Positions 8,802 through 49,483 are shown, counted from the stretch's first letter. The stretch: 64,000 bases of DNA from Bdellovibrionales bacterium (GCA_965200025.1 OZ241325.1:844674-908673); one strand, 5' to 3'. The notes: a model not told the origin generated them from the letters alone. Made by a program: numbers and translations.

Positions 8802-8864
8802 ACAACCGGATACTGCTTCCCAGTGAGAATCATTTCCACAAAAATTGTGTCGTCTTTATAATTT

Positions 8865-9401
8865 TTAGGAGTTTTCCCTGTCCATAAAAATACGGGTTCC
8901 CTGCACACCTTTTTGTCCCTGGTACTTGCCCTTATAGGGATTTTTGGTGGCCTGGTCCATTTTACAAAAAACAATCTGGCAAATTCTTCTCCCCGCCCGC
9001 AACCGAATGGGAAGAGCATTGGCGTTGTAAAGCTCCAAAGTGAGCTGCCCCTTAAAGCCCGGGTCCACCCACCCCGCATTTTGAATAAAAAGCCCCATAC
9101 GTCCCACAGAACTCCTTCCCTCCACAAAAGCTGTTAAATTGTGAGGCAGACTTAAAGTCTCCACCGTCATGGCCAGCACAAAAGAATGAGAGGGAACAAT
9201 AAACTCATCTGTTTTAATCACCTGATAATTGGGCTGAGAGTTAAAGTCCAAAATATTTGTATTCCAGTGCTTGATAATAACAAACTCCCTGCCCAATTTT
9301 AAATCCACAGAGGCCGGCTGAATGCAAAGCTCATCCAAAGGATCAATGGCAAGGTCTTTGTTTTTCAGGCTTTGCCGGATACTTATGTCAGAAAGAATCA
9401 A
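8865..9401 (-). CDS. dcd: dCTP deaminase
   Basis: 178 aa with [23 protein letters not shown] and [10 protein letters not shown] motifs. The TTG start overlaps the fusA stop (TTGA). Confidence 0.9.
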
Positions 9402-11673: not shown

Positions 11674-12804
11674 TCACAGGCGGGCCAGGTAAGGGGCGGC
11701 TTTTCTGATCTCCACCCCGTCGGGAAAAGTTTTTTCCCTTCTTAGGGAACGAACCAGCTGCACCTTCTGAATACTGGGAAAAGACCTCGAAAACAACCTC
11801 AAATTGCTTGACACTTCACTTTCAGACCACTTCACCTCTATCATGGCCGAAGGGGTTTGATTCTTAACTATTAAAAAATCCACCTCTTTCTTTTCCCTGT
11901 TCCTCAGGTAAAATAATTTGGCATCCTCCCCCTTAACATCTTCAAGAAAATGCACATGTTTTAACAAAGCCTGGGCCACCAGGTTTTCAAATCGTGCCGG
12001 CATACCCTGCACCTGTGCCGTATCATAAAAGTAGTACTTCGGAGCCTTTACCAAAGAACGGGCTATGTTTCTGTGCCATGGTGTGAGTTTAAAAATAATA
12101 TACAAATTCTCCAAAAGCCCAAGCCAATGTTTCACTGTTTTGGGGGCAACACTTAAATCCTCTGCCAAAGCTGTATAAGATACAGGAGAGGCCACACGAT
12201 TTTTTAATAACATCACCAAAGTCTCCAAAGAGGAAAGCTGCTTGGTGTCTATAAAATAAATCAAATCCTGCCGAAGAATAATATGGTTGTGGGATCTGGC
12301 CCACTTTCCGTAAAATGAGGGATTTGCCCTTAAAAAAGGCTCTGGAAAACCACCAAAATGGAGCAGACGATCCAAAGCCCCCTCTGCGTCCAGCAAGCCA
12401 TGTCTGACAATCTCTTTCACATCAAAAGGATGAAGACGAAACTGAAAAAACCGGCCAGCCAGAGAGTCGCCAATTTTTTTACGCAAATCCAGGCGGGCCG
12501 AACCCGTTACCACCATCCCGGGACACAAACCTTCCGTATCGTAAATCCCCTTTAACCATTTTTTCCAGTTTGGTTTTTTGTGTATTTCATCAAATATAAT
12601 GTATTTCTTTCTTCTGTCCCAAGCTTTGCCTCTCATCACCTGCTGATGTTCTTCATTGTCGTAATTCAGATAGTCATACCCGGAAAAAAGACTCTTCGCC
12701 AAAGTGGTTTTTCCACACTGGCGGGGACCTGTGAGCAAAAGGATTTTGTGTTTTAAATCCTGACGCAAAACACTTGTTAAGTACCGCTTAAGAACAGGTT
12801 TCAT
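11674..12804 (-). CDS. AAA+ ATPase with DUF4143-type C-terminal PD-(D/E)XK-like domain, paralog 2
   Basis: GPRQCGKT Walker A. The C-terminus is EVDFLIVKNQTPSAMIEVKWS. Confidence 0.85.
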   Translation of the reverse strand: MKPVLKRYLTSVLRQDLKHKILLLTGPRQCGKTTLAKSLFSGYDYLNYDNEEHQQVMRGKAWDRRKKYIIFDEIHKKPNWKKWLKGIYDTEGLCPGMVVTGSARLDLRKKIGDSLAGRFFQFRLHPFDVKEIVRHGLLDAEGALDRLLHFGGFPEPFLRANPSFYGKWARSHNHIILRQDLIYFIDTKQLSSLETLVMLLKNRVASPVSYTALAEDLSVAPKTVKHWLGLLENLYIIFKLTPWHRNIARSLVKAPKYYFYDTAQVQGMPARFENLVAQALLKHVHFLEDVKGEDAKLFYLRNREKKEVDFLIVKNQTPSAMIEVKWSESEVSSNLRLFSRSFPSIQKVQLVRSLRREKTFPDGVEIRKAAPYLARL

Positions 12805-14036: not shown

Positions 14037-15170
14037 ATGCACAAAAGGTATTTATTTTCTGATATTAAAAAAGACCTAAAAACCAAAATGGTTTTTGTGG
14101 GAGGGGCCAGGCAGGTGGGAAAAACCACTTTGGCTTTAAGGTATTTAAAACCTCCCCACAGAAAGCACCCCGCTTATTTTAACTGGGACATTCCCTCTCA
14201 TCAGGAGCAAATTATAAAAAATCAAATCCCTTTAAAAAATAACACCCTTGTGTTTGATGAAATACACAAATACATTCGGTGGAGGGGTTTTATGAAGGGT
14301 CTGTATGATGCTTACCGGGACAGTCATTCTTTTTTGGTCACAGGCTCTGCCCGACTGGATTTTTTTTCCAGGGGGGGAGATTCTCTTTTAGGCCGTTATC
14401 ATTACTACCGGCTTCACCCTTTTTCTTTGTTGGAGATCAACAAAAACCCCTCATCTGAAGACCTTTCAACCCTTTTGAAGTTTGGTGGGTTTCCTGAACC
14501 TTTTTTAAGAGGCTCCCACACTTTTTCAAAAAGGTGGAGGAGGGAAAGAAGACACCGTATTATACATGAAGATTTAAGAGACTTAAGTCAGGTGAGAGAG
14601 ATTTCCCTTATATCCCTGTTGGTGGAGGGGCTTTTAAACCGGGTGGCATCTCCTCTTTCCATCCGGTCTTTAAAGGAGGATTTACAGGTCTCGCACCAGT
14701 CTGTGGAAACCTGGATCACCATTTTAGAAAACTTATATATGGTTTTCAGAATACCCCCCTTCGGCAGTCCCAGAATACGGGCTGTTAAAAAAGAACAAAA
14801 ACTTTATTTTTATGACTGGTCTGCTCTTGGGAATCCCGGGATTCAATTTGAAAACCTGGTGGCCTGCCACCTGCTAAAGTACTGCCATTACATGGAGGAT
14901 ACAAAAGGAGAGGATATGGAACTCAGGTTTTTAAGAGACACAGACAAAAGAGAGGTGGATTTTGTGGTTCTCAAAAATCAAAAACCCCTGTTTGCTGTGG
15001 AGTGCAAGACCGGACAAAAAACTTTATCCCCCCATATCACCTACTTTAAAGAAAGAAGCCGGATCCCTTTGTGGTTTCAGGTACATAAAGAAACCAAAGA
15101 CTACGGGTCAGAAAAATCAGGACGGGTTTTACCCTTCACCACTTTCTCAAAAGAATACTTAAAAATTTAA
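14037..15170 (+). CDS. AAA+ ATPase with DUF4143-type C-terminal PD-(D/E)XK-like domain, paralog 3
   Basis: GARQVGKT Walker A. The C-terminus is EVDFVVLKNQKPLFAVECKTG. Confidence 0.85.
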   Translation: MHKRYLFSDIKKDLKTKMVFVGGARQVGKTTLALRYLKPPHRKHPAYFNWDIPSHQEQIIKNQIPLKNNTLVFDEIHKYIRWRGFMKGLYDAYRDSHSFLVTGSARLDFFSRGGDSLLGRYHYYRLHPFSLLEINKNPSSEDLSTLLKFGGFPEPFLRGSHTFSKRWRRERRHRIIHEDLRDLSQVREISLISLLVEGLLNRVASPLSIRSLKEDLQVSHQSVETWITILENLYMVFRIPPFGSPRIRAVKKEQKLYFYDWSALGNPGIQFENLVACHLLKYCHYMEDTKGEDMELRFLRDTDKREVDFVVLKNQKPLFAVECKTGQKTLSPHITYFKERSRIPLWFQVHKETKDYGSEKSGRVLPFTTFSKEYLKI

Positions 15171-16767: not shown

Positions 16768-17280
16768 TCAGTGCTTCAGCTGAGCCAAAAGACTAAAAAA
16801 ATCAATGGCTTTTTTTAGTTCTTCTTTTTCCACCACCATTGAGATTTCATCAAACAGCATTTGACATATTGTGAGCATCATTTGTCTTTCATAAAAACTT
16901 AAGCCCTTGGATTTTTCTGTATTTAACAGCTCTCTTAAAATACGGGCTGTGTGAAACACATTACCGGTTTTGATAATCCTTAAATACTCCTGGTGCCGTT
17001 TACTCCAGTTTTTTCCAGGCTCCACAAGGCTCCCTTTACAGTTATGATCTTTTAAAACCTCCAGCACCTGCTCGGCCTCTTTACGGGTGATCACAGAGCG
17101 GATGCCTATTTTTTTCATCCGGTTTTCAGGTATCATCACCTTCATTTCAGAATTCATAATAAAAAGAGAGTAAAATTTTTGCCTCTGACCGGATATCTCT
17201 TTGGTTTCTATGGAAGTGATTTTCCCCAGGCCATGCCCTGGATAAACAGCCTTATCACCCACTTTAAAGTCCATAGCCAA
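16768..17280 (-). CDS. carD: CarD/CdnL-family RNA-polymerase-binding regulator
   Basis: N-terminal FKVGDKAVYPGHGLGKI Tudor-like motif. 170 aa. Confidence 0.85.
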   Translation of the reverse strand: MAMDFKVGDKAVYPGHGLGKITSIETKEISGQRQKFYSLFIMNSEMKVMIPENRMKKIGIRSVITRKEAEQVLEVLKDHNCKGSLVEPGKNWSKRHQEYLRIIKTGNVFHTARILRELLNTEKSKGLSFYERQMMLTICQMLFDEISMVVEKEELKKAIDFFSLLAQLKH

Positions 17281-17432: not shown

Positions 17433-19682
17433 TCAGGAACGCTTGACACTGATCACAGGTTTCAGGGATTTGAGGGATTTTAAGACCTCCTGAAGCTGTT
17501 TGAGGTTGTGCAGCTGAACACTGAACAGGCAGGTGGATTTTAAGTCCTGACTGGCTTTCACATTGAGATTTAAGATATTCACATTATGCTCGGCAAAAAC
17601 ACCGGACAAGCCGCTTAAAACCCCCGGGCCGTCATGTACCAAAACCTCCACAAGAGCAGGATGCCAAACCTTGTGTTCTTTGCTCTCATTCCACTCCACA
17701 TCCACATAACGCTCTGAATCCAAAGCCAGAAGAGTGCGGCAGGAATGACGATGCACCATAATACCCCGGCCCCGACTGATAAACCCGGTGATCAGATCCC
17801 CTGGCAGGGGTTTGCAACATTTTGCAAAATGCACCATCACATTCCCAGAACCCTCCACACTCACAGGACAGGCCGCAGAAGAAGAGGGCCTGTCTTTTTT
17901 CTTAACCTCCCCGTGGGAAGTCAGCTTTTTCTCCTGCACAGGAGGGGCAGGCACAAGATTTGCCATTAAATCAGAGATAAGAATTTTTCCATAAGCCAGG
18001 CGGGAAAACAAATCCTCTTGAGAGTTTAATCCCTTTTCCCTGGCATACTTTTGCCAGGCCGGGGATTTAAAAACCTCCTCTTTTTTTAACTTATGGGATT
18101 TTAACTCCTTCTCCAGCAGATTTTGGCCAATGGTTAAGGAGGCTTTTTTTCTCTCCATACGAATAAAAGATTTGATTTTGGATTTTGCCTTGGAGGTGAC
18201 ACAATACTTGAGCCATTCTTCAGAGGGGTTTTGGTTTTTCGAAGTGATAATCTCCACTGTGTCTCCATTTTTGAGTTTCCATTTCAGGGGAACCAAACGG
18301 CCATTGACCCTGGCTCCACTGATTTTGTGACCCAAATCTGTATGAATGGCATAGGCAAAATCAATGGGGGTGGCACCTTTTGGAAACTCCTTCACATCCC
18401 CCTGAGGGGTAAAAATATAAATTTCCAGGTCAAAAAGATCCATTTTAACAGATTCCAAAAACTCCCCGGATTTGGAATGATGCTGGTGAAGGCTTACCAG
18501 ATTTTGAAGCCAGTTAAATTTTTTTAAAGTGTTTTTATCCACCTGGGAGCCTTCCCTCCAGGATTCTGTTTTATACTTCCAATGGGCTGCAATCCCCTTT
18601 TCAGCAAGCAGGTGCATGTCAAAAGTGCGAATTTGCACCTCTATTCTTCGCCCCTGCTCCCCCAACACAGTGGAGTGAAGGCTTTGGTAATTGTTGGTTT
18701 TTGGAATGGCAATGTAGTCTTTAAATCTCCCGGGGACCGGCTTGTAAAAGGAATGAAGTACACCCAAAATCTGATAACATTCCTCCATTTTATGAACACA
18801 AATACGGAAAGCCAAAACATCATACACCTGATCATAATCCACATTCTGACTCATCATTTTTTTATAAATGGAGTACATGTTTTTTAACCGGCCGGTGATT
18901 TCCACCGGGATATGTGTTTTTACACGAATTTCTTTTTTTAAAATAGCAATCACATTTTTTATGTACTTTTCAGTTTGTGTTTTTTCCTCATTCATTTTCC
19001 GTTTTAAGGAACTAAAGGTTTCCGGATCAGAGTACTGAAATGCCAAATCCTCCAGCTCCACCTTTAAAGAGTAAATACCCAGGCGGGAGGCCAGGGGGGC
19101 GTAAATATCCAGGGTCTCCTGTGCGGTCAAAAGTTGTTTTTCCGGAGTGAGGTGTTTGAGGGTTCTCATATTGTGCAAACGATCAGCCAGTTTCACCAGC
19201 AGCACACGCACATCCTGTGCAATGGCCACAATCATTTTTCGCATATTTTCACTGGTTTTGTGGTGGGTGTTTCGAAAAGAGATATGAGATATTTTACTCA
19301 CCCCATCCACCAAAAAAGCCACTGTTGGGTTAAATTCTTTTTCCAGGTCTTTGACACTCCATTCTGTATCCTCCACCACATCGTGAAGCAGTCCTGTTAC
19401 AACCGTGTAAAGGTCCAGATGCAAATCTGCCAACAGGGCCGCCACATTTAAAGGGTGTAAAATATAAGGGGAGCCGTCTTTTCTGAGCTGACCTTTGTGG
19501 GCCCGACTGGCCAACTCAAAGGCTTTTTGCACCAGGCTTAAATCTGCCGAAGAGTAATAGGTTTCTATTTTGTCCAGAAGATCCTGAAGACAGGATATAT
19601 CACCGGATCTCAAAGTTCCATAAGAGGCGGCAGGGGAAAATTGTGGATTTTCATCCTCTGGTAAAGAACGGGGTAAAGCCAT
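17433..19682 (-). CDS. spoT: bifunctional (p)ppGpp synthetase/hydrolase, RelA/SpoT family
   Basis: 749 aa with an HD motif (HDVVEDT), a synthetase core, and TGS and ACT-like C-terminal regions. It sits downstream of rpoZ. Confidence 0.9.
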   Translation of the reverse strand: MALPRSLPEDENPQFSPAASYGTLRSGDISCLQDLLDKIETYYSSADLSLVQKAFELASRAHKGQLRKDGSPYILHPLNVAALLADLHLDLYTVVTGLLHDVVEDTEWSVKDLEKEFNPTVAFLVDGVSKISHISFRNTHHKTSENMRKMIVAIAQDVRVLLVKLADRLHNMRTLKHLTPEKQLLTAQETLDIYAPLASRLGIYSLKVELEDLAFQYSDPETFSSLKRKMNEEKTQTEKYIKNVIAILKKEIRVKTHIPVEITGRLKNMYSIYKKMMSQNVDYDQVYDVLAFRICVHKMEECYQILGVLHSFYKPVPGRFKDYIAIPKTNNYQSLHSTVLGEQGRRIEVQIRTFDMHLLAEKGIAAHWKYKTESWREGSQVDKNTLKKFNWLQNLVSLHQHHSKSGEFLESVKMDLFDLEIYIFTPQGDVKEFPKGATPIDFAYAIHTDLGHKISGARVNGRLVPLKWKLKNGDTVEIITSKNQNPSEEWLKYCVTSKAKSKIKSFIRMERKKASLTIGQNLLEKELKSHKLKKEEVFKSPAWQKYAREKGLNSQEDLFSRLAYGKILISDLMANLVPAPPVQEKKLTSHGEVKKKDRPSSSAACPVSVEGSGNVMVHFAKCCKPLPGDLITGFISRGRGIMVHRHSCRTLLALDSERYVDVEWNESKEHKVWHPALVEVLVHDGPGVLSGLSGVFAEHNVNILNLNVKASQDLKSTCLFSVQLHNLKQLQEVLKSLKSLKPVISVKRS

Positions 19683-19736: not shown

Positions 19737-20006
19737 TTAATTTTCTGGTTTTAAGGAAGTCACAGGATACTTTTTTTCCACCCTGAGGTCTTGTTCCAGC
19801 TGCTGTTCAGGAGGTAGCGTGCCACAATCAAAATTGACTTTGTCCGCAGAAACCTCTCTTAAGGCATTCACCACGGGTTTGTTTTTTTGCCTCACAAGGC
19901 AGGGGTCTCCTTTTAAAAGCTGCTTGACCCTCTTTGTCACCAAAGCCACCAAAGCAAAACGGTTGGAAACTTTTTTTAAACAATCCTCCACAGTCACCCG
20001 GGCCAT
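19737..20006 (-). CDS. rpoZ: RNA polymerase omega subunit
   Basis: [10 protein letters not shown]...NRFALV N-terminus typical of RpoZ. GGAGG RBS. Confidence 0.85.
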
Positions 20007-20046: not shown

Positions 20047-20099
20047 CACTTCCCGCTCTCTGTTGTCAAATGTGAGGGCCATAATTTTTCCAAAGCCCC
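20047..20099. repeat. direct repeat, left copy (decayed duplicate of the gmk-rpoZ spacer)
   Basis: 52/53 identical to 22939-22991. A second shared block is TAAAACTATGACT at 20105-20117 and 23016-23028. Confidence 0.95.
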
Positions 20100-20336
20100 T
20101 CCCTTAAAACTATGACTTTTAGCAATTTCTGCTTTGTAAGGGACACTATGTAATAAATACACACCCTTTTATGAAAAATATCCTGACTGCCACCAAGTAC
20201 ATTGTAATATAGCTTGCATTTTGTGAATAATGCAATGCATAAAAAGTCAATATTAAGGATTTGATTATTGTTGGTGATGAAAGTATATTGAAGGACCAAG
20301 ACGGGTAGCCAAGTACCTAAAAGGGGATTAAGTTTT

Positions 20337-20549
20337 ATGAAGTGCATTGTATGCCATAGCAAACTTACAAAGGCTGAGTACGATGAGTTGGCCCCGGAAT
20401 TTAAGCCTCATCCTGTACACAAAGAATGTTTTGATACATTTGTAAATGCAGATGAGTTTTTAGAGTTTGCCTCTGAACAGACATCTTCAAAAAAATTCTC
20501 ACCCCCTCCCGCAACACAAGCACCTCCCCCGGATCTGTCACCAAACTAA
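20337..20549 (+). CDS. small Cys/His-rich protein (possible zinc ribbon, possible controller of the island)
   Basis: 70 aa with CxxC...HxxHxxC, i.e. MKCIVCH...HPVHKEC. It is transcribed opposite to (convergent with) the nuclease/methylase genes. AAGGGG lies upstream of the ATG. Confidence 0.4.
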   Translation: MKCIVCHSKLTKAEYDELAPEFKPHPVHKECFDTFVNADEFLEFASEQTSSKKFSPPPATQAPPPDLSPN

Positions 20550-21047
20550 TATTTTGGAAGGGGATAAAGAACCTTCAGGCAAACAGTTTATAATATCCAC
20601 CTCACTTCTTTCCCCGTTCCATTTTGCAATGGTAATTTTCCTGTTTTTTCCATAATTCAATAAGTTATGTTTTTGGTCGCTATTTAAAAAAGCATTTAAG
20701 CCTGTGGTTTTCTCTTTCGGACTCAATAAAATGGCACACACAGGTTGCATAATACGAGAGTACCCAATAAGCTGGCTTAAATGTTGTAAAGTCAGTTTTT
20801 TGGTTTTACATTCCACTAAAACCAGGCCAGTTTTATTATTTTGCGACACAACAGAAAACACATCAATTTTTATATTAAAATAATGAGAATGAGTAATTTT
20901 CTTTGTAAGATTTTTCCTGATTAATATTTTGCTGATGAATTCATCGGCACCTATATATGTTTGGACAATGCTTTGTGGCTTGAGACTCCTTTTTAAATAA
21001 GCATCCAACCAGGTTTTAACGGGGTGATATAATTCCAGTTCTTTCAC
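20538..21047 (-). CDS. NucS/RecB-like PD-(D/E)XK mini-nuclease
   Basis: IDVFSVV-x9-LVLVECKTKK-LTLQHLSQLIGY gives the D...ExK...QxxxY signature. The GTG at 21047 overlaps the upstream TGA (GTGA), suggesting translational coupling. The track ORF start at 21101 is probably too long. Confidence 0.55.
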   Translation of the reverse strand: MKELELYHPVKTWLDAYLKRSLKPQSIVQTYIGADEFISKILIRKNLTKKITHSHYFNIKIDVFSVVSQNNKTGLVLVECKTKKLTLQHLSQLIGYSRIMQPVCAILLSPKEKTTGLNAFLNSDQKHNLLNYGKNRKITIAKWNGERSEVDIINCLPEGSLSPSKILVW

Positions 21048-21937
21048 TTTTTTTCTTTCTGTGTGCAACCCATGGCAATGCATATTTCTCTGAAGTTGCA
21101 AATATGTTTTCGGACTTGTGAGGGAAGTTTATCACTGTGTTCATCAGGATGCAATGGCTTTGATTTGATCCTTGGCTTTTTATCCGGCCAACAAAAGGAT
21201 GGGGTTGTTTTATTGATCTGGTTATCACGTTGGACAAACATTTCCAAAATTTTTTGTTTAAACTCCAATCCAAAACCAATACGGATAAAATGTTTTGAAT
21301 AGAATCTAATCCTATGCTCTTTAGTCCAGCTATGAGAACGGGGTCTGGTGGGGGTTCTTAAGTTAGGATGTCCCCATATTATATTGTCAACAGGAATATT
21401 TAAGCTTTCCTGTAATATCCGACATATTTGCACAGGAAGCTTCCAGTTCTCAAAAGGAATATCCAGGCAGATTCTTGTATACTTGTTCCAATCTCTGTCA
21501 CCAAATGTGGGAATGGAGCATGAATCAGCCACTCCTCTAATAAAATGCTTTTTTATATCAAGAGATGCATTCCTAACAGATTCAGGAACAAGGGCAGTTT
21601 TATAACTAAAAGTTTCCAAAGGACCCAATATATCGTATAATATATCCCATACCACAGTGTTTTTTGAAACAGGTACAATAACAGAGTACATCAGGTCATC
21701 CCGTTGTACTTTTATATCTGTTTGCAGGTATTCTTTAAGCAGTTCGGTAACACTGGTACCATCTATTGTATACTCACGACCCTTTTGAGACAGCTCGCTA
21801 ATATCACAACCAGGAGGAAGCTTAAACCTTTTGTTTTTGTACTTGAATCTTACAATTATACTTGAGTCAACAAAGTATCCTCTGGCAATACACATTCCCA
21901 AAAAATAAGAAAGCTCAGGTTTGTTTAAGGCTTGCAT
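21044..21937 (-). CDS. hypothetical protein with two degenerate LAGLIDADG-like motifs
   Basis: LSYFLGMCIARGYF (res 9-22) and KKHFIRGVADSCSIP (res 128-142) have the spacing of single-chain LAGLIDADG enzymes. Assignment is by eye only. Confidence 0.35.
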   Translation of the reverse strand: MQALNKPELSYFLGMCIARGYFVDSSIIVRFKYKNKRFKLPPGCDISELSQKGREYTIDGTSVTELLKEYLQTDIKVQRDDLMYSVIVPVSKNTVVWDILYDILGPLETFSYKTALVPESVRNASLDIKKHFIRGVADSCSIPTFGDRDWNKYTRICLDIPFENWKLPVQICRILQESLNIPVDNIIWGHPNLRTPTRPRSHSWTKEHRIRFYSKHFIRIGFGLEFKQKILEMFVQRDNQINKTTPSFCWPDKKPRIKSKPLHPDEHSDKLPSQVRKHICNFREICIAMGCTQKEKK

Positions 21938-22833
21938 TTTTTAAATATCAGTAAAAATTCATGAATTTTATTTACCCGGAAAACATAAGGGTACCCCAAA
22001 GGCCGCAAATTGTTGTAGTCCTGCTTCCTGTCCCATATAATGATGTCATCCAAAGTGTACCCAACTGAACACAAAGCCTGTGTAATATCCATATGAAGAG
22101 GATAAAACATGCTTTTTTTTCTTAAATCCATAACATTTATTATACAGTAAGCATTGGGTTTTAAAACCTTAGACACCTGATGAAATATATTTTTCATGGT
22201 GAAAAGATACTGTTTATATTCAGAAATTACACCTATGTTCTCTTTTGACAAATGATATTCTTTTTTTATTTTTCCATCCACTGTTCTTTTTTGACTTAAA
22301 ATATCCCAATAAGGTGGACTGGTAAAACATAAATCAATCGTATTATTTGGAATATATTTTCCAACATTAATGGCATTACTTTTTACCACTTGAATCTTTG
22401 ATTTTTTTTTAGTTATTGATTCAAGTTTTTTTATTCTGCTTTTGGAAATGGAAATATATTTTTTACTTATATCAAAGCCTATTCCGGTTTTATTGAGCTT
22501 ATGGCAAGCCACAAGAGTGGAACCAGATCCCACAAAAGGATCCAGAATATTTGTTTTGCGTGAATCTGTAAAAGTCTCTATGACTTTATATGCCAACTTC
22601 CAGGGAAATACCGCCGGATGTTCCAGTTTCCTCTCTTCAGTGTCTTTGGACATGCCGTTCCATATCGATACAGAGTTTTTGAGCCAGTCACTTCCATTAA
22701 GATCGTTGGCTTTATTTGTGGATTTCCTGTGTTTTTTTACAGGCAATGTATCATGATGAAACAAGTTCAATACCAAACCCCATTTTATAAAAATTAAAAT
22801 CTTCTTTAAAATTGTGCAATTATTGAGAAACAT
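21925..22833 (-). CDS. DNA methyltransferase (N4-C/N6-A family, SPPY type)
   Basis: HPAVFP and DPFVGSGST (AdoMet motif I) lie upstream of FTSPPYWD (motif IV). Confidence 0.85.
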   Translation of the reverse strand: MFLNNCTILKKILIFIKWGLVLNLFHHDTLPVKKHRKSTNKANDLNGSDWLKNSVSIWNGMSKDTEERKLEHPAVFPWKLAYKVIETFTDSRKTNILDPFVGSGSTLVACHKLNKTGIGFDISKKYISISKSRIKKLESITKKKSKIQVVKSNAINVGKYIPNNTIDLCFTSPPYWDILSQKRTVDGKIKKEYHLSKENIGVISEYKQYLFTMKNIFHQVSKVLKPNAYCIINVMDLRKKSMFYPLHMDITQALCSVGYTLDDIIIWDRKQDYNNLRPLGYPYVFRVNKIHEFLLIFKKCKP

Positions 22834-22841
22834 TGATAAGT

Positions 22842-22882
22842 AAAAAAAACAAAGCCCGACCTTGGGCTTGAATTTTTGTTTT
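22842..22882. terminator. bidirectional intrinsic terminator candidate
   Basis: A8 run, then stem AAGCCC / loop GACCTT / GGGCTT, then GAATTTTTGTTTT. It lies between gmk and the methyltransferase start. Confidence 0.5.
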
Positions 22883-22938
22883 CCACTATTCGACGAACAT
22901 GCTCTTTATAATATCTTAAAAACCACTTATAAGACCCA

Positions 22939-22991
22939 CACTTCCCGCTCTCTGTTGTCAAATATGAGGGCCATAATTTTTCCAAAGCCCC
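22939..22991. repeat. direct repeat, right copy (immediately downstream of gmk)
   Basis: 52/53 identical to 20047-20099. Confidence 0.95.
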
Positions 22992-23007: not shown

Positions 23008-23619
23008 TCAATCTATAAAACTATGACTGTGGGGTTTTTTGATATACGCCTCAATGATATTTCCCAGCTGTTTTAAGGTGTGTGTCAGATTGTGGTTTAC
23101 CACCTGGTGATCAAATTCTTTGGCTTTGGCAATTTCTGCATTTACGGCAACAGAACGCTTTAAAATATCCTGTACACTTCCCTCCCGCCTTTTTTGCACA
23201 CGATCTGTCAGAGCATCCAGGGAGGGGGGCAAAATAAAAATTCTTAGACAGGTGGGGATTTTTTTTTTCACCTCATCCGCCCCCTGTGTATCCAGGTCTT
23301 TAATCACTATTTTTTTCGACTTCCAAATCCTGCTTAACTCCCCAAAAGCTGTTCCGTAATAGTGCTGATAAACACAGGCCCATTCCAAAAAAAAGTTTTT
23401 TTGCCTTAACTCTTTAAACCGCGAAGAGCTCACAAAATGGTAGTCTCTTCCACACACCTCCCCTGCCCTGGGCGGGCGTGTGGTGTAAGACACAGGGACC
23501 CTTAAGCTCTCCGTGTATTTTTTTAAAACCTTTTGAATGAGAGTGGATTTTCCCACCCCACTGGGACCACAAATCACCAAAAAACCCCCTGCCCGGTTTT
23601 TTCGCTCTGTTGTTTTCAT
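23008..23619 (-). CDS. gmk: guanylate kinase
   Basis: GPSGVGKST P-loop and TTRPPRxGE motif. Confidence 0.9.
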   Translation of the reverse strand: MKTTERKNRAGGFLVICGPSGVGKSTLIQKVLKKYTESLRVPVSYTTRPPRAGEVCGRDYHFVSSSRFKELRQKNFFLEWACVYQHYYGTAFGELSRIWKSKKIVIKDLDTQGADEVKKKIPTCLRIFILPPSLDALTDRVQKRREGSVQDILKRSVAVNAEIAKAKEFDHQVVNHNLTHTLKQLGNIIEAYIKKPHSHSFID

Positions 23620-23721: not shown

Positions 23722-24558
23722 TTACTCTATGTTTTGCACCTGCTCTCTCATTTGCTCAATAAGGGTTTTTGCCAACACCACCTGATGAATCATATACACA
23801 TTTTGGGATTTTGACCCAGCGGTATTCACTTCACGAATCATCTCCTGAAGGTAAAAAGCCAGCTTTTTACCACAATAAGGGGCAGGAGCTGAAAGCAGGT
23901 GGCGAAACACCTTAATATGCTCCCTCCACCTTAAAAGCTCCTCCTGAATATCCTGACGAAAAAGAGAGCTTTCCCCGTTTTTGGAAGCCAAAGTGTGTTT
24001 TCTTATTTTTTTTACCTGTTGATGAGAGGCTTTTTTAATACGAAAAAAACATTTCATAAGTTGTGTTAAGTTTTTTTTCAGGCTTTTTCTTAAAGCCTGT
24101 CCCTCTCTTCCCCTCTCCTTCAGGCAGCGGTTTAAAGCTTCCCCAAAAAGTTTTTTAACAAGGGTTTTTTCTGAAACAGAAGGGAAATTTGTTCTGTCTG
24201 TGCAAAGCACCCCGGGGAGGAGGGCCAAAGTGCTTAAATCCAGATTGTTTTTTATTTTGATATCTTTGGACATTTTTTGATAAAGCTTTTTCCACCGAAG
24301 GGCCTGTGCCATGTTAAAATAACTTCCTTTCATTTTAGGCACTGGTACAGACGGAGTGCGTGTAACAAAAACCTCCACAAAACCTCTTTTTATTTTTTTT
24401 TCCAGACTCTTTTTGAGATCCACTTTTAAAGAGCTGTAAAAAGGGGGAAGAATAATTTTAAGATCCAGGTATTTGTGGTTTAAAGAGCTTATGCTCACTT
24501 CCACACGCCCTCCCGAAAAGGAGGACACACAGTTTCCATAACCTGTCATGCTTTTCAT
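23722..24558 (-). CDS. yicC: YicC-family stress-induced protein
   Basis: MKSMTGYG N-terminus, C-terminal REVNTxGSK-type motif, 278 aa. Confidence 0.8.
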   Translation of the reverse strand: MKSMTGYGNCVSSFSGGRVEVSISSLNHKYLDLKIILPPFYSSLKVDLKKSLEKKIKRGFVEVFVTRTPSVPVPKMKGSYFNMAQALRWKKLYQKMSKDIKIKNNLDLSTLALLPGVLCTDRTNFPSVSEKTLVKKLFGEALNRCLKERGREGQALRKSLKKNLTQLMKCFFRIKKASHQQVKKIRKHTLASKNGESSLFRQDIQEELLRWREHIKVFRHLLSAPAPYCGKKLAFYLQEMIREVNTAGSKSQNVYMIHQVVLAKTLIEQMREQVQNIE

Positions 24559-25191: not shown

Positions 25192-27633
25192 TTAACTTAA
25201 GGGAGTGTTTAAAGCCTCCTGGGAGGAGGCTGTGGCATCCAAAACTCTGGGAGTGAGAAACAGAAGCAATTCGTTTCTGCTTTCGTCTGAGATTTTTTTT
25301 GTAAAAAACCAGTTGATAATGGGTATGTATTTGAGAAGAGGCAGAGATTCATCCGATTTGGTGACATCACTTTGGTACATACCACCTATGACAATGGTTT
25401 GCCCATTACCCACCAAAACCTTGGTGTTGGCCTCACGGGTGTTGGTGGGCCGGGCCTGAGTGGCATCATGGATAATAGGGCCGGAGAATTGTCTTCGCAT
25501 AGTCACCTGCATAAAGACAGAACCCACCGCCGTAATATTGGGTGTGACATTAAACTCAAACACCACAGGGTTACGGTTGGCCTGTGTGGTGGTACCGGCA
25601 TTGGGGGCTGTAACAGTTGCGATATCAATGCTTTCTGTGGATTGAGTGATCTGAGCCGTTTCTCCATTAAGAACCATAATTCGCGGGGCGGAAATCACCC
25701 GGGCCATTCCCTCATTCTCAGAAATACCCAGTACAGCATCCAGCTGGCCCACAGGGGCAAAACCAATATTGAGGTTGGAGTTTAATGTCCTTCCCCCTGT
25801 AGCCCCACCCTGGCTTCCCCCCTGTTGACTGGCGGGAAAAGCGGTAATATCCCCACCCACACTCAATCCCATGGAATCCTTACCAAAAAGAGGAAAATCA
25901 TTGAGACTCCTTCCCACAAACTCAAGATTTAGCCCAAAGTTTTTTACAAAAGTTTCTCTGGCCTCCACAATTTTGGCCTCAATCATCACCTGCTGGGGGG
26001 ACTTGTCCAGTTTTTCAATCAAAGGGTTTAACCTTTCAATGGCAGAGGCCACATCTGTAACAATTAAAGAGTTGGTCTTTGTGTCCTGACTGACTTTCCC
26101 CCTCCCCTGAGTTAAGAAAGGTCTGATTTGGTTAACAATCTCCCCCACCTTGGCATAAACCACAGGGATAACCTTTACCTCCAAAGGTTCCAGTATTTTT
26201 TTACTCTGAAGCAGCTGCTTCAGTTCATTTTGCCTGGCCTGAAAAGTACTCTTGGTCATAATGCGAAGGACATTGCCCTCCCGCGAGTAGGCCAGGCCCT
26301 TGGTTTTCAACACAGTGACCAAAGCCTGATCCCAGGGAACATTTCTGAGTTTAAGATTTAAGCTTCCCTGTACATTGTCATCCACCACCAGGTTCAGTCC
26401 GGTTTGCTCAGAAATATAATACAGTATTTCCTTGAGATCCATATTCTTAAAATGAAGACTGATGGACCGGCCTGTAAATTTGTATTTGTTCATCAAAAAA
26501 TCCTCATAAGTGGTACTCTGGGGACCAACAAACATGTTTCCCTGTACCCCTCCCCCCGGCTCTGGTTCTGTGTCGTCAGAAAACACATCCCCTTCATCTG
26601 CCAAAAGCAGGTCTTTTTGCCGGGACTTTGGAGAAGTAAAAACCACAAGCCCTCCCCCGGCTTCAGAACTCACAGAGGGCCAGCTCCCCTCCTCTCTCAT
26701 CTGTATAACAACTCTTACTGTTGTGGGGTCTTTTTGATCCGCTTTTAAAAAAGCCATGCGGGTGTTAAACTCCTTCATAACAAAAGGCCATTTTAAACTT
26801 TTGGACAATACCGCATTGGACATTTCTATAATGAATTGTTTTTGTTCTTCGTTTTTTCGAACCTGATACAAAATCTCATCACTTCCTGCGATATGGATTT
26901 TGTCTTCACCGGCCACATAACGAATACTGTTAATGCTCACCTGTGGGCTTTCCTGCAAAACATCCCCCCCTGTGGCCTGAGCCAGGGCAGCATCCACCTC
27001 ATCATCCTCTTCTTCAGGAGACTCTGTTGCCTCTTCACCGGCAACACTGCCTTCTGCCTGTGCAGAGGAAAGCTCCTGGGCAGGAAGCTCACCGGCCTCC
27101 CCTTCTGTTTCCCCCGCCACAGAGGCCACTTCTTTTTGCACACCCTCCTCCTGCCGCACTGCCTCTTCCTCTTCCAGCTCGGCTATCTCCTCCTCTTCAT
27201 CTATAAAGACCTCCTCTGCTGCTTCCCCCTCTTCAGGGTCAAGCTCTGCCAGGGCTGAATCCCCCCCTTCCCCGGCTTCTGCCTGCTGCTCCCCGGGAAC
27301 TGAACCTTCCTGTGTGTTATCAGGAGAGGGAGAAACAGAAGCTTCCTCAAAACTTTCCCCCCTACCTTCTGCATCCTCCAAAAAATCTCTTTCAAAATCC
27401 TCAGAATCCACAAATTCATTTTCCAAATCCGTGCTTTCACCCTCTTCCTCCTCCTGTCTTTCCGCACCAATCACATCGCCCGCATCATCGGCCTCCTCAG
27501 GGAAAGACTCCTCCCCATCCATAAAACTCTCCTCCCCCTCATCTGCATAAAAAGCCTCCTGCCCCGTCTGACAGGACACAAAAAACACAAAACACAAAAA
27601 AACCTGAAAGCCTTTTTTTATACTGTCCTTCAT
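25192..27633 (-). CDS. pilQ: type IV pilus secretin PilQ with acidic low-complexity N-terminal region
   Basis: C-terminal secretin domain (VLVGNGQTIVIGG, LFLTPRV). Start moved to ATG 27633 (GGAGGG RBS, lipobox FFVSC). Confidence 0.85.
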   Translation of the reverse strand: MKDSIKKGFQVFLCFVFFVSCQTGQEAFYADEGEESFMDGEESFPEEADDAGDVIGAERQEEEEGESTDLENEFVDSEDFERDFLEDAEGRGESFEEASVSPSPDNTQEGSVPGEQQAEAGEGGDSALAELDPEEGEAAEEVFIDEEEEIAELEEEEAVRQEEGVQKEVASVAGETEGEAGELPAQELSSAQAEGSVAGEEATESPEEEDDEVDAALAQATGGDVLQESPQVSINSIRYVAGEDKIHIAGSDEILYQVRKNEEQKQFIIEMSNAVLSKSLKWPFVMKEFNTRMAFLKADQKDPTTVRVVIQMREEGSWPSVSSEAGGGLVVFTSPKSRQKDLLLADEGDVFSDDTEPEPGGGVQGNMFVGPQSTTYEDFLMNKYKFTGRSISLHFKNMDLKEILYYISEQTGLNLVVDDNVQGSLNLKLRNVPWDQALVTVLKTKGLAYSREGNVLRIMTKSTFQARQNELKQLLQSKKILEPLEVKVIPVVYAKVGEIVNQIRPFLTQGRGKVSQDTKTNSLIVTDVASAIERLNPLIEKLDKSPQQVMIEAKIVEARETFVKNFGLNLEFVGRSLNDFPLFGKDSMGLSVGGDITAFPASQQGGSQGGATGGRTLNSNLNIGFAPVGQLDAVLGISENEGMARVISAPRIMVLNGETAQITQSTESIDIATVTAPNAGTTTQANRNPVVFEFNVTPNITAVGSVFMQVTMRRQFSGPIIHDATQARPTNTREANTKVLVGNGQTIVIGGMYQSDVTKSDESLPLLKYIPIINWFFTKKISDESRNELLLFLTPRVLDATASSQEALNTPLS

Positions 27634-27831
27634 GGTGAAAAACCCTCCGATGAAATATCCTGTGCCGAACTTCAAATTTTTAAAACCACTAAACCTGCTT
27701 CACTTCCCTTTTTAAATTGTATGATACTTTTTAAAAAAAACACCAATTTATTCTGTAACAAGCTGCGGCTTAAAATGTAACACACTCCGTTAAATACAAA
27801 ATTTTTCTTAACAAATATGTTACGCAATACA

Positions 27832-46944: not shown

Positions 46945-48597
46945 TTACATTTGCCGGTAGTCAGGGCCTGTGCCTCCCTCTTTTGGAGTCCAGCGGGGAC
47001 CCAGTACATCAGTGGCTTTGCAGTCCACACAGTTGGGAGGATGAGTAAAAAAACCCTCTTTTGTTTTTTCATAAACACCGGCCGGACACAAATGAGTGTA
47101 AAAATCCTTTACCTCTTCCGGTAAATCCTCTTTGGACTTCAGATGAGAGGGAATATCATCTCTACTTTTGTTTCCCGATAAAAACACCGCCTCGCTCTTG
47201 CTTAAACCCTTCACCGGCTTTGCATAAGACATATCCCGAAAACGAACTTTTTTTGCATCCTCACAAAACCGGGCTTTTTGATCCCCTGGAAACCTCCCCC
47301 CACTTAAAAACATTAAAGCGGACTTAAAAACCCCTTTTAAAAAATGAGAGTCAAAAGCCTGACGAACATTGCGAACCGGGTAAAGCTCTTTTCCAATACA
47401 GCTGTTGTATCTTACCTGCTCATCATAATGTTTTAAAACCGGGTGGGAAAAATCGTTTTTCTTTAAAGCCTCAAAAGCCGTTTCAGCGGCTAAAAGCCCT
47501 GCTGTCATCGCATAATGTATGCCTTTTAAAGCCGGTACATTCACCATGTGGGCAGCATCCCCCACAAGCAGCAAACCATGATCGGAGAGCTGATGAGGCA
47601 TACTGTGATACCCCCCTTCAGGAATGGTCTTGGCCCCCCACTCCACACACCTGCCCCCCTTTAAGACAGAAGCAAAAAAAGGATGAGTTTTTAACTCCTG
47701 AAGTTTAAGATGCACATCCAGATTTTTAAAAGAGGAATTTAAGCCTGCCACCAGGCCCAAAGAAACTTTGTTTTCCTCCAGAGGGTAAAGCCAGCTTCCC
47801 CCAAAACAGCTTAAGGGAAGGGGCCAGCCCATGGTGTGAAAAACCCCTGTTAAGGGGCAAGCCACCTCCCACACCTCCTTGACTCCCAGAGCATAAGTGG
47901 AAGGATAGGTGGAGGATATTTTTTTTAAATGCTGCCATGCCTGGCTTAAGTGTCCCCTTGAGCCATCCGCCAGTATCAAAAGCTTTGCCTTCACATGCAC
48001 AGGCTTTTGGTGGGAAGTGCCAGGCTTTCCGTCCCTGTTCAGCCCTACCGGAAAAGTGCTGACACCTTTAATACGGCCCTTTTCAACAAGAAGTTTGTCT
48101 GCCGTAAAAGAGGTAAAAAGAGATATCTGTTTGTCTTCCGCACGGCGGGCCATCCACTTTACCACATGGGTTAAAGAGGCTGTGTAAAAATTTTTGTTTT
48201 TCATGGGAGGGGGAAAGGGAAGAGGCCATTTGTAATTTTTGGTTAAAAAATAAAAGCTTTCTTTTTTTACTTTTCTGTGGAAAGGAAAATCTTTTTCGTG
48301 CAAATCAGGAAAAAGTTTTTTAAAAGGGGCAGGGTTGATAACAGCCCCGGAAAGGCTATGCCCCCCCATACGGGAAGCCTTTTCCATAACTGCAATATGA
48401 ACATTGGGAAAGTCTTTTTGACAAAGTTGTTTAAGATGCAGGGCAGCACTTAAACCTGCAGGCCCCCCTCCCACCACCAAAACATCCACCTCCAGCTCCT
48501 CTTCTTCAGCGGAGGGGGAAAGCTCTTTAACCGATCGTTTTAAATCATACTCTGGCTGGTGATGAAAAGGTGTAAAGCCAGAGTTTTGTGTTTTCAT
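46945..48597 (-). CDS. electron-transfer flavoprotein:ubiquinone oxidoreductase
   Basis: VLVVGGGPAGLSAA FAD motif, a C-terminal 4Fe-4S Cys cluster region, and a GGTGPDYRQM end typical of ETF-QO. Confidence 0.85.
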   Translation of the reverse strand: MKTQNSGFTPFHHQPEYDLKRSVKELSPSAEEEELEVDVLVVGGGPAGLSAALHLKQLCQKDFPNVHIAVMEKASRMGGHSLSGAVINPAPFKKLFPDLHEKDFPFHRKVKKESFYFLTKNYKWPLPFPPPMKNKNFYTASLTHVVKWMARRAEDKQISLFTSFTADKLLVEKGRIKGVSTFPVGLNRDGKPGTSHQKPVHVKAKLLILADGSRGHLSQAWQHLKKISSTYPSTYALGVKEVWEVACPLTGVFHTMGWPLPLSCFGGSWLYPLEENKVSLGLVAGLNSSFKNLDVHLKLQELKTHPFFASVLKGGRCVEWGAKTIPEGGYHSMPHQLSDHGLLLVGDAAHMVNVPALKGIHYAMTAGLLAAETAFEALKKNDFSHPVLKHYDEQVRYNSCIGKELYPVRNVRQAFDSHFLKGVFKSALMFLSGGRFPGDQKARFCEDAKKVRFRDMSYAKPVKGLSKSEAVFLSGNKSRDDIPSHLKSKEDLPEEVKDFYTHLCPAGVYEKTKEGFFTHPPNCVDCKATDVLGPRWTPKEGGTGPDYRQM

Positions 48598-48635
48598 TAT
48601 ATCCAGGTACCTTTATACCATTTTGTCCCAATCAA

Positions 48636-49280
48636 TCAAACAGCTTTTAACCATGCCTGAAGAAGAAGGTCAAATTCACCGGCCTCGTATTTAAAAAAAT
48701 GGGCAGATCTTTTTTCAAAATCAGAGTCTTTTTGTTTCAACCTGGTGGTGACCTCTTTAAGATGCCCCCCCTCCTCTTTTAAAACAAAATCCAGATTAAA
48801 AGAAAACCCATTTTGTTTTAAAAAAGTATTGTAAAGTGTATAAACCTCCACGGCACGCTCTTCTATCATGTAAGTGGTATAGAGGTAATTTAAAAACACA
48901 CCCTGGGAGTCTGAAAAATCAGCCTTTAAGTGTTTTTCTGCATAATGATCCAGATTTTGAAAATACTGCTCTGCCATCTTGCCCTTAAGCAGGTATTTTT
49001 CTTCAAAAGTTTTTGTATGGGAGGGGGAAAGCTTACAGGCCAGGTTTTTAAAGTAGGCTGCATGGCGGGTTTCCTCACTGATATGCATCAACACCTCTTT
49101 GTTGATGAGGGAGGAATTCTGGCTTTTTATAATCTTTCGGGAACCAATATGCTCCAAAAAAGCCAGGGTGTTTAACCACCGGGCATGAAGGGGTTTGTTC
49201 TCTAAAAGGAGAGCAAAAAAATCCTTTAATTTTTCTGTATAACTCTTTAAATACTTATATTTTTCACATACAAGAGACAT
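48636..49280 (-). CDS. ferritin-like / di-iron carboxylate superfamily protein (putative)
   Basis: Helical 214-aa protein with LEHIGSRK and EETRHAAYF (ExxH). Assignment is tentative. Confidence 0.35.
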   Translation of the reverse strand: MSLVCEKYKYLKSYTEKLKDFFALLLENKPLHARWLNTLAFLEHIGSRKIIKSQNSSLINKEVLMHISEETRHAAYFKNLACKLSPSHTKTFEEKYLLKGKMAEQYFQNLDHYAEKHLKADFSDSQGVFLNYLYTTYMIEERAVEVYTLYNTFLKQNGFSFNLDFVLKEEGGHLKEVTTRLKQKDSDFEKRSAHFFKYEAGEFDLLLQAWLKAV

Positions 49281-49483
49281 TAATATCCTGTATCTCCTGG
49301 AGGAAATGGATCATTACCATAAGAGTCTTTAGATCGTATTTTTCCGTCCCTGCCGTGAATAACAACTTCAGACTGCATTCTTTTGGCTCTTATAACTGCA
49401 TTTTTTATAGCGTTGTGTTGAGTGTCATGTGAAGATAACACATATCCACCACTTTTAACAGACCAAGCCACTCCCAACCTCAC
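49280..49483 (-). CDS. DUF2188-domain protein
   Basis: HGRDGKIRSKDSYGNDPFPPGD matches the conserved DUF2188 C-terminal motif. Confidence 0.6.
   Translation of the reverse strand: MRLGVAWSVKSGGYVLSSHDTQHNAIKNAVIRAKRMQSEVVIHGRDGKIRSKDSYGNDPFPPGDTGY

Follow-up and report, generated by a model that had tools for sequence, protein, structure and literature searches.

How did an island of methyltransferase and putative nuclease genes come to lie within the yicC-gmk-rpoZ-spoT operon of a Bdellovibrionales bacterium, and why is it bracketed by two almost identical direct repeats of 53 bp? The island is located in a 64,000-nucleotide stretch of DNA (GCA_965200025.1 OZ241325.1:844674-908673; hereafter the window, with positions counted from its first letter), in which yicC, gmk, the island, rpoZ, spoT and carD follow one another on the minus strand. 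A preliminary description, made from the sequence alone, had proposed an insertion with long target duplication. We consider it probable that the island is a horizontally acquired restriction-modification-type cassette of ~2.7 kb, inserted into the operon with such a duplication. Four lines of evidence concur in this: remnants of gmk beside the island, an independently assembled contig carrying the same junction, a related genome in which the island is absent, and a second, independent long duplication made by the same cassette family at an unrelated locus.

Origin and extent of the repeated target

The two copies of the 53-mer start 2892 bp apart and are identical at 52 of 53 positions, differing by a G/A exchange at 20072/22964. 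Direct reading and a repeat finder recovered the same coordinates and mismatch as had been described before. At up to 3 mismatches the 53-mer occurs twice in the window and in none of 100 dinucleotide-preserving shuffles, and a dispersed repeat could thereby be ruled out for the window. The right copy belongs to the native spacer behind gmk, whereas the left copy is followed by the leader of rpoZ (Table 1).

The source of the duplicated target was found to be the last ~280 nt of gmk together with this spacer. Between the end of the island and the left 53-mer lie 110 nt that have three exact blocks in common with the gmk 3' end, in collinear order. The chain of blocks totals 35 nt, a value that neither the 2000 shuffles nor the 2835 random pieces of the window attained. 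One of the blocks, the 13-nt TAAAACTATGACT, had already been noted as a second shared sequence and was found at the positions given, with its right copy in the last gmk codons.

A longer homologue of this remnant is present in a 3.3-kb Logan contig (SRR17504026; L004), an independent assembly from another sample, which was found via a homologue 81% identical to the 297-amino-acid (297-aa) island protein of the window. The contig carries the 3' end of the methyltransferase gene, homologues of the genes for the 297-aa protein, the 169-aa protein and the small convergent open reading frame (ORF), a stretch of ~300 nt, rpoZ and spoT, in this order. In blastn the ~300-nt stretch aligned to gmk of the window with 77% identity over 185 nt (E-value (E) 2e-35), starting exactly at gmk nt 334 (codon 112), and in tblastn it gave three collinear segments in differing frames with an internal stop (combined E 1e-12). 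Judged from these alignments, the stretch between island and rpoZ in L004 is a frameshifted gmk pseudogene. This remnant also contains an internal tandem duplication of ~72 bp (2004-2043 / 2077-2115), in which AAAGACTTTGACCA...GGCGGGCCACAACCTGC occurs twice.

The homology between the islands of the window and L004 stops at ...AAAATGCAAGCTA (window ~20210), and the gmk remnant of L004 begins right there. Since that remnant starts at gmk nt 334, where the island homology ends, the size of the original duplication can be reconstructed: roughly 350 bp, comprising ~279 nt of gmk (from codon ~112 on), 16 nt of spacer and the 53 nt of the repeat, with the spacer contributing 69 nt in all. The 53-mer is the best-preserved block of an orphan copy of the gmk end, itself now ~160 nt long after several deletions. 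The collinear blocks and the pseudogene in L004 both agree with the earlier proposal that the left copy arose as a duplicate of spacer and gmk end and has since decayed; a target duplication is thus supported, but not the 53 bp originally assigned to it. In terms of annotation, an insertion of this kind explains both the interrupted gmk-rpoZ-spoT operon and the gmk pseudogene fragment.

In its composition the island stands apart from the rest of the window. The guanine-cytosine (GC) content of 20100-22938 is 0.348, compared to a window mean of 0.427 (standard deviation 0.025 for stretches of equal size), making it the lowest such stretch, and its tetranucleotide deviation is the highest (z ~5); the GC value bears out the AT-richer interior that had been noted by eye. 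The distance between the two 53-mers is 2.84 kb, of which ~2.73 kb are assigned to the cassette proper; its exact boundaries can be defined against L004 only, the non-coding ends being too diverged in more distant copies to align.

A locus with the same gene order and no island was found in a Bdellovibrionales metagenome-assembled genome (L010), the best match among GTDB genomes, whose SpoT is 65% identical to that of the window. It has the order yicC-gmk-rpoZ-spoT-carD with a gmk-rpoZ spacer of 24 nt, and by gene order it represents an empty site at approximately the level of the order; the 53-mer is not alignable there. A scan of GTDB genomes with SpoT gave no close relative, a metagenome scan with Gmk only homologues of 32-36% identity, and look-ups of the exact RpoZ, Gmk and island proteins no record. 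Among 5.8 billion proteins the closest other Gmk is 48-50% identical, and because of this distance no empty site from the same species was obtained. The proposed comparison with relatives thus yielded an island-free gmk-rpoZ junction, but not one with a single 53-mer.

The four-gene unit of the island, encoding a methyltransferase of ~282 aa, proteins of ~295 and ~168 aa and a convergent ORF of ~70 aa, was found in at least six other contexts. It lies between a HAD-like and a TolB-like gene (L005/L006), between genes for a peptidase M14 and a Na+/H+ exchanger (L007; ENA ERZ21830245), next to rpsI-rplM (L008), ~1.4 kb from an HTH_17 gene that is followed by a Phage_integrase gene (L009), and between two genes without Pfam match (L090). 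The sixth context is a contig with a period of 10,581 bp (L091, 1-12888; ENA ERZ25072670 ctg236759_1x_c), which from its sequence is probably a small circular element of ~10.6 kb and carries Z1/ResIII, Fic, helix-turn-helix (HTH) and AlbA_2-type genes beside the cassette. The GC content of the cassette is 0.29-0.33 in these loci, which is below that of the flanking DNA in each chromosomal context and equal to the backbone (0.29) on L091.

At the Na+/H+ exchanger locus the cassette family has made a second, independent long duplication. The cassette of L007 is flanked by a perfect direct repeat of 116 bp (8862-8977 / 11752-11867), the right copy of which is the 3' end of the exchanger gene, while the left copy is an orphan. 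Because the 116-bp copies are perfect, this duplication is likely to be recent. Flanking repeats above the range of shuffled sequences were absent at L005, L008, L009, L090 and L091.

Table 1 Features of the gmk-rpoZ region, with positions in the window (strand "." where a feature has no orientation)
Feature	Position	Strand	Remarks
carD	16768-17280	-	
spoT	17433-19682	-	
rpoZ (RNA polymerase omega subunit)	19737-20006	-	Pfam match; now parted from gmk by the island
Left (rpoZ-proximal) 53-mer copy	20047-20099	.	Followed by 40 nt of rpoZ leader with ribosome-binding site AAGGAGG
TTGACA hexamer in left repeat	20065-20070	-	Twin at 22957-22962; conserved in L004
Deletion-riddled gmk 3'-end remnant (orphan target copy)	20100-20209	-	Collinear with gmk 23172-23016; longer homologue in L004
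Exact block TAAAACTATGACT, 13 nt	20117-20105 = 23028-23016	-	Remnant versus gmk 3' end
Exact block, 11 nt	20132-20122 = 23139-23129	-	Remnant versus gmk 3' end
Exact block, 11 nt	20185-20175 = 23172-23162	-	Remnant versus gmk 3' end
Inserted cassette proper, ~2.73 kb	20210-22938	-	GC ~0.35; end on the small-ORF side set where L004 homology stops (...AAAATGCAAGCTA)
Convergent ORF, 70 aa	20337-20549	+	12-nt overlap with the end of the 169-aa gene; no family match
169-aa protein (putative catalytic nuclease subunit)	20538-21047	-	Begins with GTG at 21047, within the overlap (GTGA) with the 297-aa gene's stop
297-aa protein, double-LAGLIDADG fold (putative DNA-recognition subunit)	21044-21937	-	Start overlaps methyltransferase stop
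Type II DNA amino-methyltransferase, ~283 aa	21925-22776	-	Start (TTG near 22776) inferred from six homologues; mechanical ORF extends to 22833
Promoter-like site TTTAAA-17-TAAAAT	22782-22810	-	Lies upstream of the TTG at which the methyltransferase gene probably starts
Bidirectional intrinsic-terminator-like hairpin	22852-22869	.	Minus strand AAGCCCAAGGTCGGGCTT, then T-run; ~70 nt inside the island
Right (gmk-proximal) 53-mer copy	22939-22991	.	Native gmk-rpoZ spacer, 16 nt past the gmk stop
gmk (guanylate kinase), intact	23008-23619	-	Pfam match; stop at 23008-23010
yicC	23722-24558	-	

Gene content of the cassette and the putative two-part nuclease

The first gene of the cassette encodes a DNA methyltransferase with clear family matches (Pfam N6_N4_Mtase, E 3e-32; PADLOC MTase_II, E 1e-44, full length). 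Motif I (DPFVGSGST) precedes motif IV (SPPYW), both being conserved in 7 homologues, and the best matches among solved structures are N4-cytosine methyltransferases; the SPPY motif likewise points to N4-methylcytosine as the probable product. The methyltransferase and nuclease-like genes announced in the preliminary description were thus recovered as regards the methyltransferase, but one of the nuclease-like genes turned out to encode a degenerate LAGLIDADG fold without catalytic acidic residues.

This latter gene product, the 297-aa protein, had no Pfam match even at E 10, and none was found in NCBIfam, PADLOC or the PDB sequences. Its AlphaFold model was of good quality, with a predicted local distance difference test (pLDDT) of 83 and a predicted template modelling score of 0.86, and when the model was compared to the PDB using Foldseek, all 41 matches at E <= 0.001 were LAGLIDADG proteins (best E 1e-6, probability 1.0), as was the remainder of the 50 matches listed. 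They include the intein endonucleases PI-SceI and TliVMA, the N-terminal domain of WhiA (3hyj, E 1e-5), I-DmoI, I-SceI and I-AniI. At the ends of the two LAGLIDADG-type helices stand R19-G20 and C140-S141, positions mapped by motif and helix ends rather than by superposition, and these positions are non-acidic across 17 aligned members of the family.

The protein shares with the LAGLIDADG homing endonucleases I-DmoI, I-SceI and PI-SceI its location on a mobile, selfish-looking element, but the catalytic Asp/Glu is missing in both motifs of all 17 members, a Pfam LAGLIDADG match is lacking, and the gene does not reside in an intron or intein. Insertion sites furthermore vary between genomes, and the protein therefore does not home to one cognate site. 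A parallel is also seen in WhiA/DUF199, a catalytically dead LAGLIDADG scaffold that acts as a DNA-binding regulator and is unable to cut DNA (PMC3384342), and the N-terminal domain of WhiA ranked among the top Foldseek matches. Both have a monomeric double-LAGLIDADG fold that has lost the metal-binding acidic residues at the ends of its two LAGLIDADG helices: WhiA has Arg and Gly in their place (PMC3384342), the 297-aa protein R19 and C140. In contrast to WhiA, the 297-aa protein has a C-terminal region that is conserved, contains the motifs WGHPNLR and KEHRIR and includes a number of invariant His and Cys residues, its gene is carried by a mobile cassette instead of a housekeeping locus, and no similarity is seen at the sequence level.

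In the 169-aa protein, D62 and E79-C80-K81, corresponding to a PD-(D/E)xK signature, were found to be invariant in 12 sequences, with ExK variants such as IESK in a fused form and IEAK in a plasmid homologue. The structural model was poor (pLDDT 61) and gave weak Foldseek matches to PaqCI, BamHI, EcoT38I and MspJI (E 3e-3 or weaker); the match to Pfam HSDR_N_2 was below threshold (E 0.013). The 169-aa protein is a putative catalytic nuclease subunit, and the 297-aa protein a putative DNA-recognition subunit of the same restriction enzyme.

The two proteins are tied to each other, and to restriction, because a 541-aa relative (P0174) combines them in a single fused chain (hhalign probability 98.7%, E 3e-16) and because a homologous gene pair follows a C5 methyltransferase gene (dcm) on small plasmids of Lactiplantibacillus plantarum (NZ_CP060181.1, NZ_CP141333.1; L093 3659-5036). 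From this, we infer that they make up a single restriction enzyme, one serving recognition and the other catalysis, the restriction component being suggested by the D...ExK signature, the weak fold matches, the fusion and the pairing with a second methyltransferase class. An exhaustive profile search with clustering at 50% recovered 284 family representatives, some being 1000-1300 aa long, and all named members are annotated as hypothetical protein. Ten long or fused forms (450-1300 aa) were scanned and contained no Pfam domains, and a 169-aa-type domain was absent from P0249 and P0177. Profile searches with both nuclease-side families gave no match among PDB sequences, a scan of viral contigs found no member of the LAGLIDADG-like family, and neither protein matched a named restriction enzyme family or reached significance in Pfam, NCBIfam or PADLOC. 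The architecture thus appears to be an uncharacterised one, in which a WhiA-like dead LAGLIDADG scaffold, as modelled, works with or is fused to a small putative PD-(D/E)xK nuclease; if confirmed, it would constitute a new DNA-recognition module for restriction enzymes.

When compared to type II restriction-modification systems with PD-(D/E)xK nucleases, the cassette has in common an amino-methyltransferase with motifs I and IV, encoded next to co-oriented and translationally coupled genes, an invariant D...ExK signature and the weak structural resemblance to the four enzymes named above. It differs in that the nuclease is merely 169 aa and always paired with or fused to a LAGLIDADG-fold protein of ~300 aa, and in having a convergent Cys/His gene in place of a helix-turn-helix controller protein. 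This convergent ORF of 70 aa is kept in 8 of the 8 cassette copies examined, with the pattern CxxC...HxxC and the segment EFKPYPVHxECFDTFVNADEFLEFA, and might encode a zinc-binding regulator that replaces a controller protein.

Mode and age of the insertion

The mode of insertion deduced here is already known for restriction-modification genes. Nobusato et al. reportedly described restriction-modification units inserted with long target duplication in 2000. Furuta, Abe and Kobayashi (2010) later found long target duplications of 46-423 bp for restriction-modification types I-IV, some of them over gene 3' ends (PMC2853133); the mechanism was left unknown, with double-strand breaks being suspected (PMC2853133). 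The island resembles those insertions in being a unit of less than 20 kb (here ~2.73 kb) with methyltransferase and nuclease genes (the latter putative here) and no mobility genes, in its GC content below that of the host, and in target-derived direct repeats of more than 30 bp that overlap a gene 3' end and vary in length by event (116 and ~350 bp here; 46-423 bp in PMC2853133). It differs from them in its Bdellovibrionales-like host, a lineage not listed in PMC2853133, in the decay of one repeat copy by deletions (the remainder being 97-98% identical), in the two independent events within one cassette family, and in nuclease genes of an undescribed type. What the present case adds is the recurrence at two unrelated loci and the uncharacterised nuclease pair. 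The family occupies many unrelated loci in uncultured Bdellovibrionales-like bacteria and in others, and it also occurs on small circles that resemble plasmids; it offers a compact, defined unit for experiments on how such insertions arise and on excision, amplification and homogenisation driven by the repeats.

We envisage that the cassette was joined into the conserved operon 40 nt upstream of the rpoZ start, duplicating the ~350-bp target. This would have left gmk intact on one side and an orphan copy of its 3' end on the rpoZ side, the latter being eroded by deletions afterwards. The integration was most likely a transposase-free, illegitimate event of the break-repair type, in which the two ends of the cassette became attached to the target at staggered positions and the stretch between these was copied. 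The near-identity of the 53-mers would in this case result from later homogenisation, through gene conversion or repeat-by-repeat recombination, and would not mark a recent scar. Only insertions that duplicate a gene end may survive in an essential operon, which may be why both visible cases are located at gene 3' ends.

Regarding the age of the event, rpoZ and spoT of the window and L004 are 87-88% identical, the island genes for the 297-aa and 169-aa proteins 82-83%, the small convergent ORF 79% and the non-coding DNA 76-78%. This pattern fits a single insertion before the two lineages split. All remnant blocks of the window match its own gmk, including the 13-mer, which is part of a C-terminal extension that the L004 remnant lacks.

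Several points weigh against an insertion with long target duplication as outlined here. Five of the seven independent contexts have no flanking repeat, and a long duplication is therefore not obligatory for the cassette. The 53-mers are 98% identical, compared to 76-78% for non-coding DNA between the window and L004, so that a single ancient event needs an added process. The uniqueness of the 53-mer applies to the 64-kb window, and no empty site with a single 53-mer from the same species or genus was found in the genome and protein searches. As to the gene products, the 169-aa protein has a model of low quality with weak structural matches, and restriction activity and methylation specificity are predictions. 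For the apparent paradox in age, the possibilities are homogenisation (by gene conversion, repeat recombination or cycles of amplification and reduction) and a renewed event in the lineage of the window.

An alternative to be considered is a Campbell-type homologous integration, in which a circle with the cassette and one copy of the gmk end recombines with the chromosomal gmk end. The circle could stem from excision via the repeats in another cell, and repeat-cassette-repeat would then be regenerated without a new duplication at this site. The predicted product is identical in structure to what is observed, RecA-type recombination would find sufficient length in repeats of 116-350 bp, and the cassette does ride on small, probably circular elements (L091 with its period of 10,581 bp, and the L. 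plantarum plasmids). Furuta et al. have proposed an amplification/reduction (invade-amplify-release) cycle for repeat-flanked restriction-modification units (PMC2853133), and repeated excision and reintegration would help to explain a repeat that is younger than the shared insertion. However, such recombination accounts for spread or renewal at a locus already occupied and not for the first duplication at two unrelated loci (gmk and the Na+/H+ exchanger gene), and a left copy heavily deleted in comparison to the right one is not what a fresh homologous integration would give. We therefore regard it as an unlikely origin of the island.

A further conceivable source of the duplications is the putative two-part nuclease itself, which would make the cassette an autonomous mobile element that needs no transposase. 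The degenerate LAGLIDADG part would direct the enzyme to loosely specified sites in the chromosome and the PD-(D/E)xK part would cut the DNA, so that widely staggered breaks would be made and their repair would insert the cassette with a duplication of 100-350 bp. On the basis of the predicted functions this is a decidedly speculative idea, to which we give little weight; if true, a nuclease doubling as insertion machinery would be the missing mechanism of insertion with long target duplication.

The cassette could also have landed between repeats that already existed, following an earlier tandem duplication of the gmk end and spacer, and insertions that fell by chance between sequence repeats are indeed one class of repeat-flanked restriction-modification genes in Furuta et al. 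(PMC2853133). This would have to have happened twice for one cassette family at unrelated loci, gmk of L010 is directly followed by rpoZ with no second gmk fragment, and a bare tandem duplication in an essential operon would be unstable, all of which makes this course of events very improbable.

Still less credible is a site-specific integration by an integrase acting in trans, for which the repeats would have to represent attL/attR cores, with the left-hand gmk-like sequence as an element-borne restorer of the gene end. Islands that enter the 3' ends of genes do bring replacement ends with them and leave direct repeats behind, and direct repeats around an island of low GC content, located where a conserved gene has its 3' end, are a feature shared with integrase-borne islands; the copy in L009 also has the Phage_integrase gene in its vicinity. 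In the window, however, no integrase or transposase domains were detected in the island, as had been stated before, or within ~10 kb on either side, and no tRNA or tmRNA genes were detected in the whole of positions 1-64000. The repeats at the two loci are unrelated, differ in length (~350 versus 116 bp) and each match their own local target, the island ends of the window and L007 are dissimilar, and the intact gmk end lies on the chromosomal side while the orphan is the decayed copy. A tRNA-derived attachment site was ruled out by the lack of tRNA genes. Terminal inverted repeats were absent from the window and L007 islands, with terminal alignments within the shuffle range, and transposon-like ends were ruled out for both since no common termini exist either. 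An insertion sequence or transposon was likewise rejected, as there is neither a transposase nor inverted repeats and the duplications of 116 bp and ~350 bp are not of a short, fixed length.

An artefact of assembly or binning (a contig from metagenome assembly with a chimeric join or a collapsed repeat) might be suspected given an apparently uncultured source and window self-matches confined to a single contig of 1.9 Mb, but the independent L004 assembly has the same order of island, gmk remnant and rpoZ, the cassette, with its overlapping reading frames, is intact and a mis-join would not yield decayed remnants, so that it can practically be dismissed.

Regulatory sites and neighbouring features

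The consequences of the insertion for transcription of the operon were assessed from predicted sites. The terminator-like hairpin between gmk and the methyltransferase gene would probably halt transcripts coming from gmk, uncoupling rpoZ and spoT. The preliminary description had assumed that the TTGACA in the left repeat keeps rpoZ expressed. The hexamer is present, but the promoter scan found no acceptable -10 partner at 16-18 nt (GGTAAG, GTAAGC and TAAGCA) and called no promoter from the island to rpoZ; a sigma-70 promoter built on TTGACA is thus unsupported. Since no terminator was predicted between the 169-aa gene and rpoZ, expression of rpoZ could plausibly be supplied by transcripts that read through from the island operon. 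A structured RNA in the repeat or the rpoZ leader was also considered and rejected, as Rfam gave nothing relevant and the fold z-score was -1.1.

Elsewhere in the window, two divergent paralogous genes for AAA_14/DUF4143 ATPases are located ~1.2 kb apart, at 11674-12804 (minus strand) and 14037-15170 (plus strand). The second-highest tetranucleotide deviation was found at ~48400-49300, where an ORF of 214 aa without Pfam match (48636-49280, minus strand) adjoins a gene for electron-transfer flavoprotein (ETF)-ubiquinone oxidoreductase. A PilQ-type secretin encoded at 25192-27675 (minus strand) has a long, acidic, low-complexity N-terminal region (~26.8-27.6 kb) that produces a strong local anomaly in GC skew and GC content, and its gene is followed by pilP, pilO, pilN, pilM and prepilin peptidase genes.

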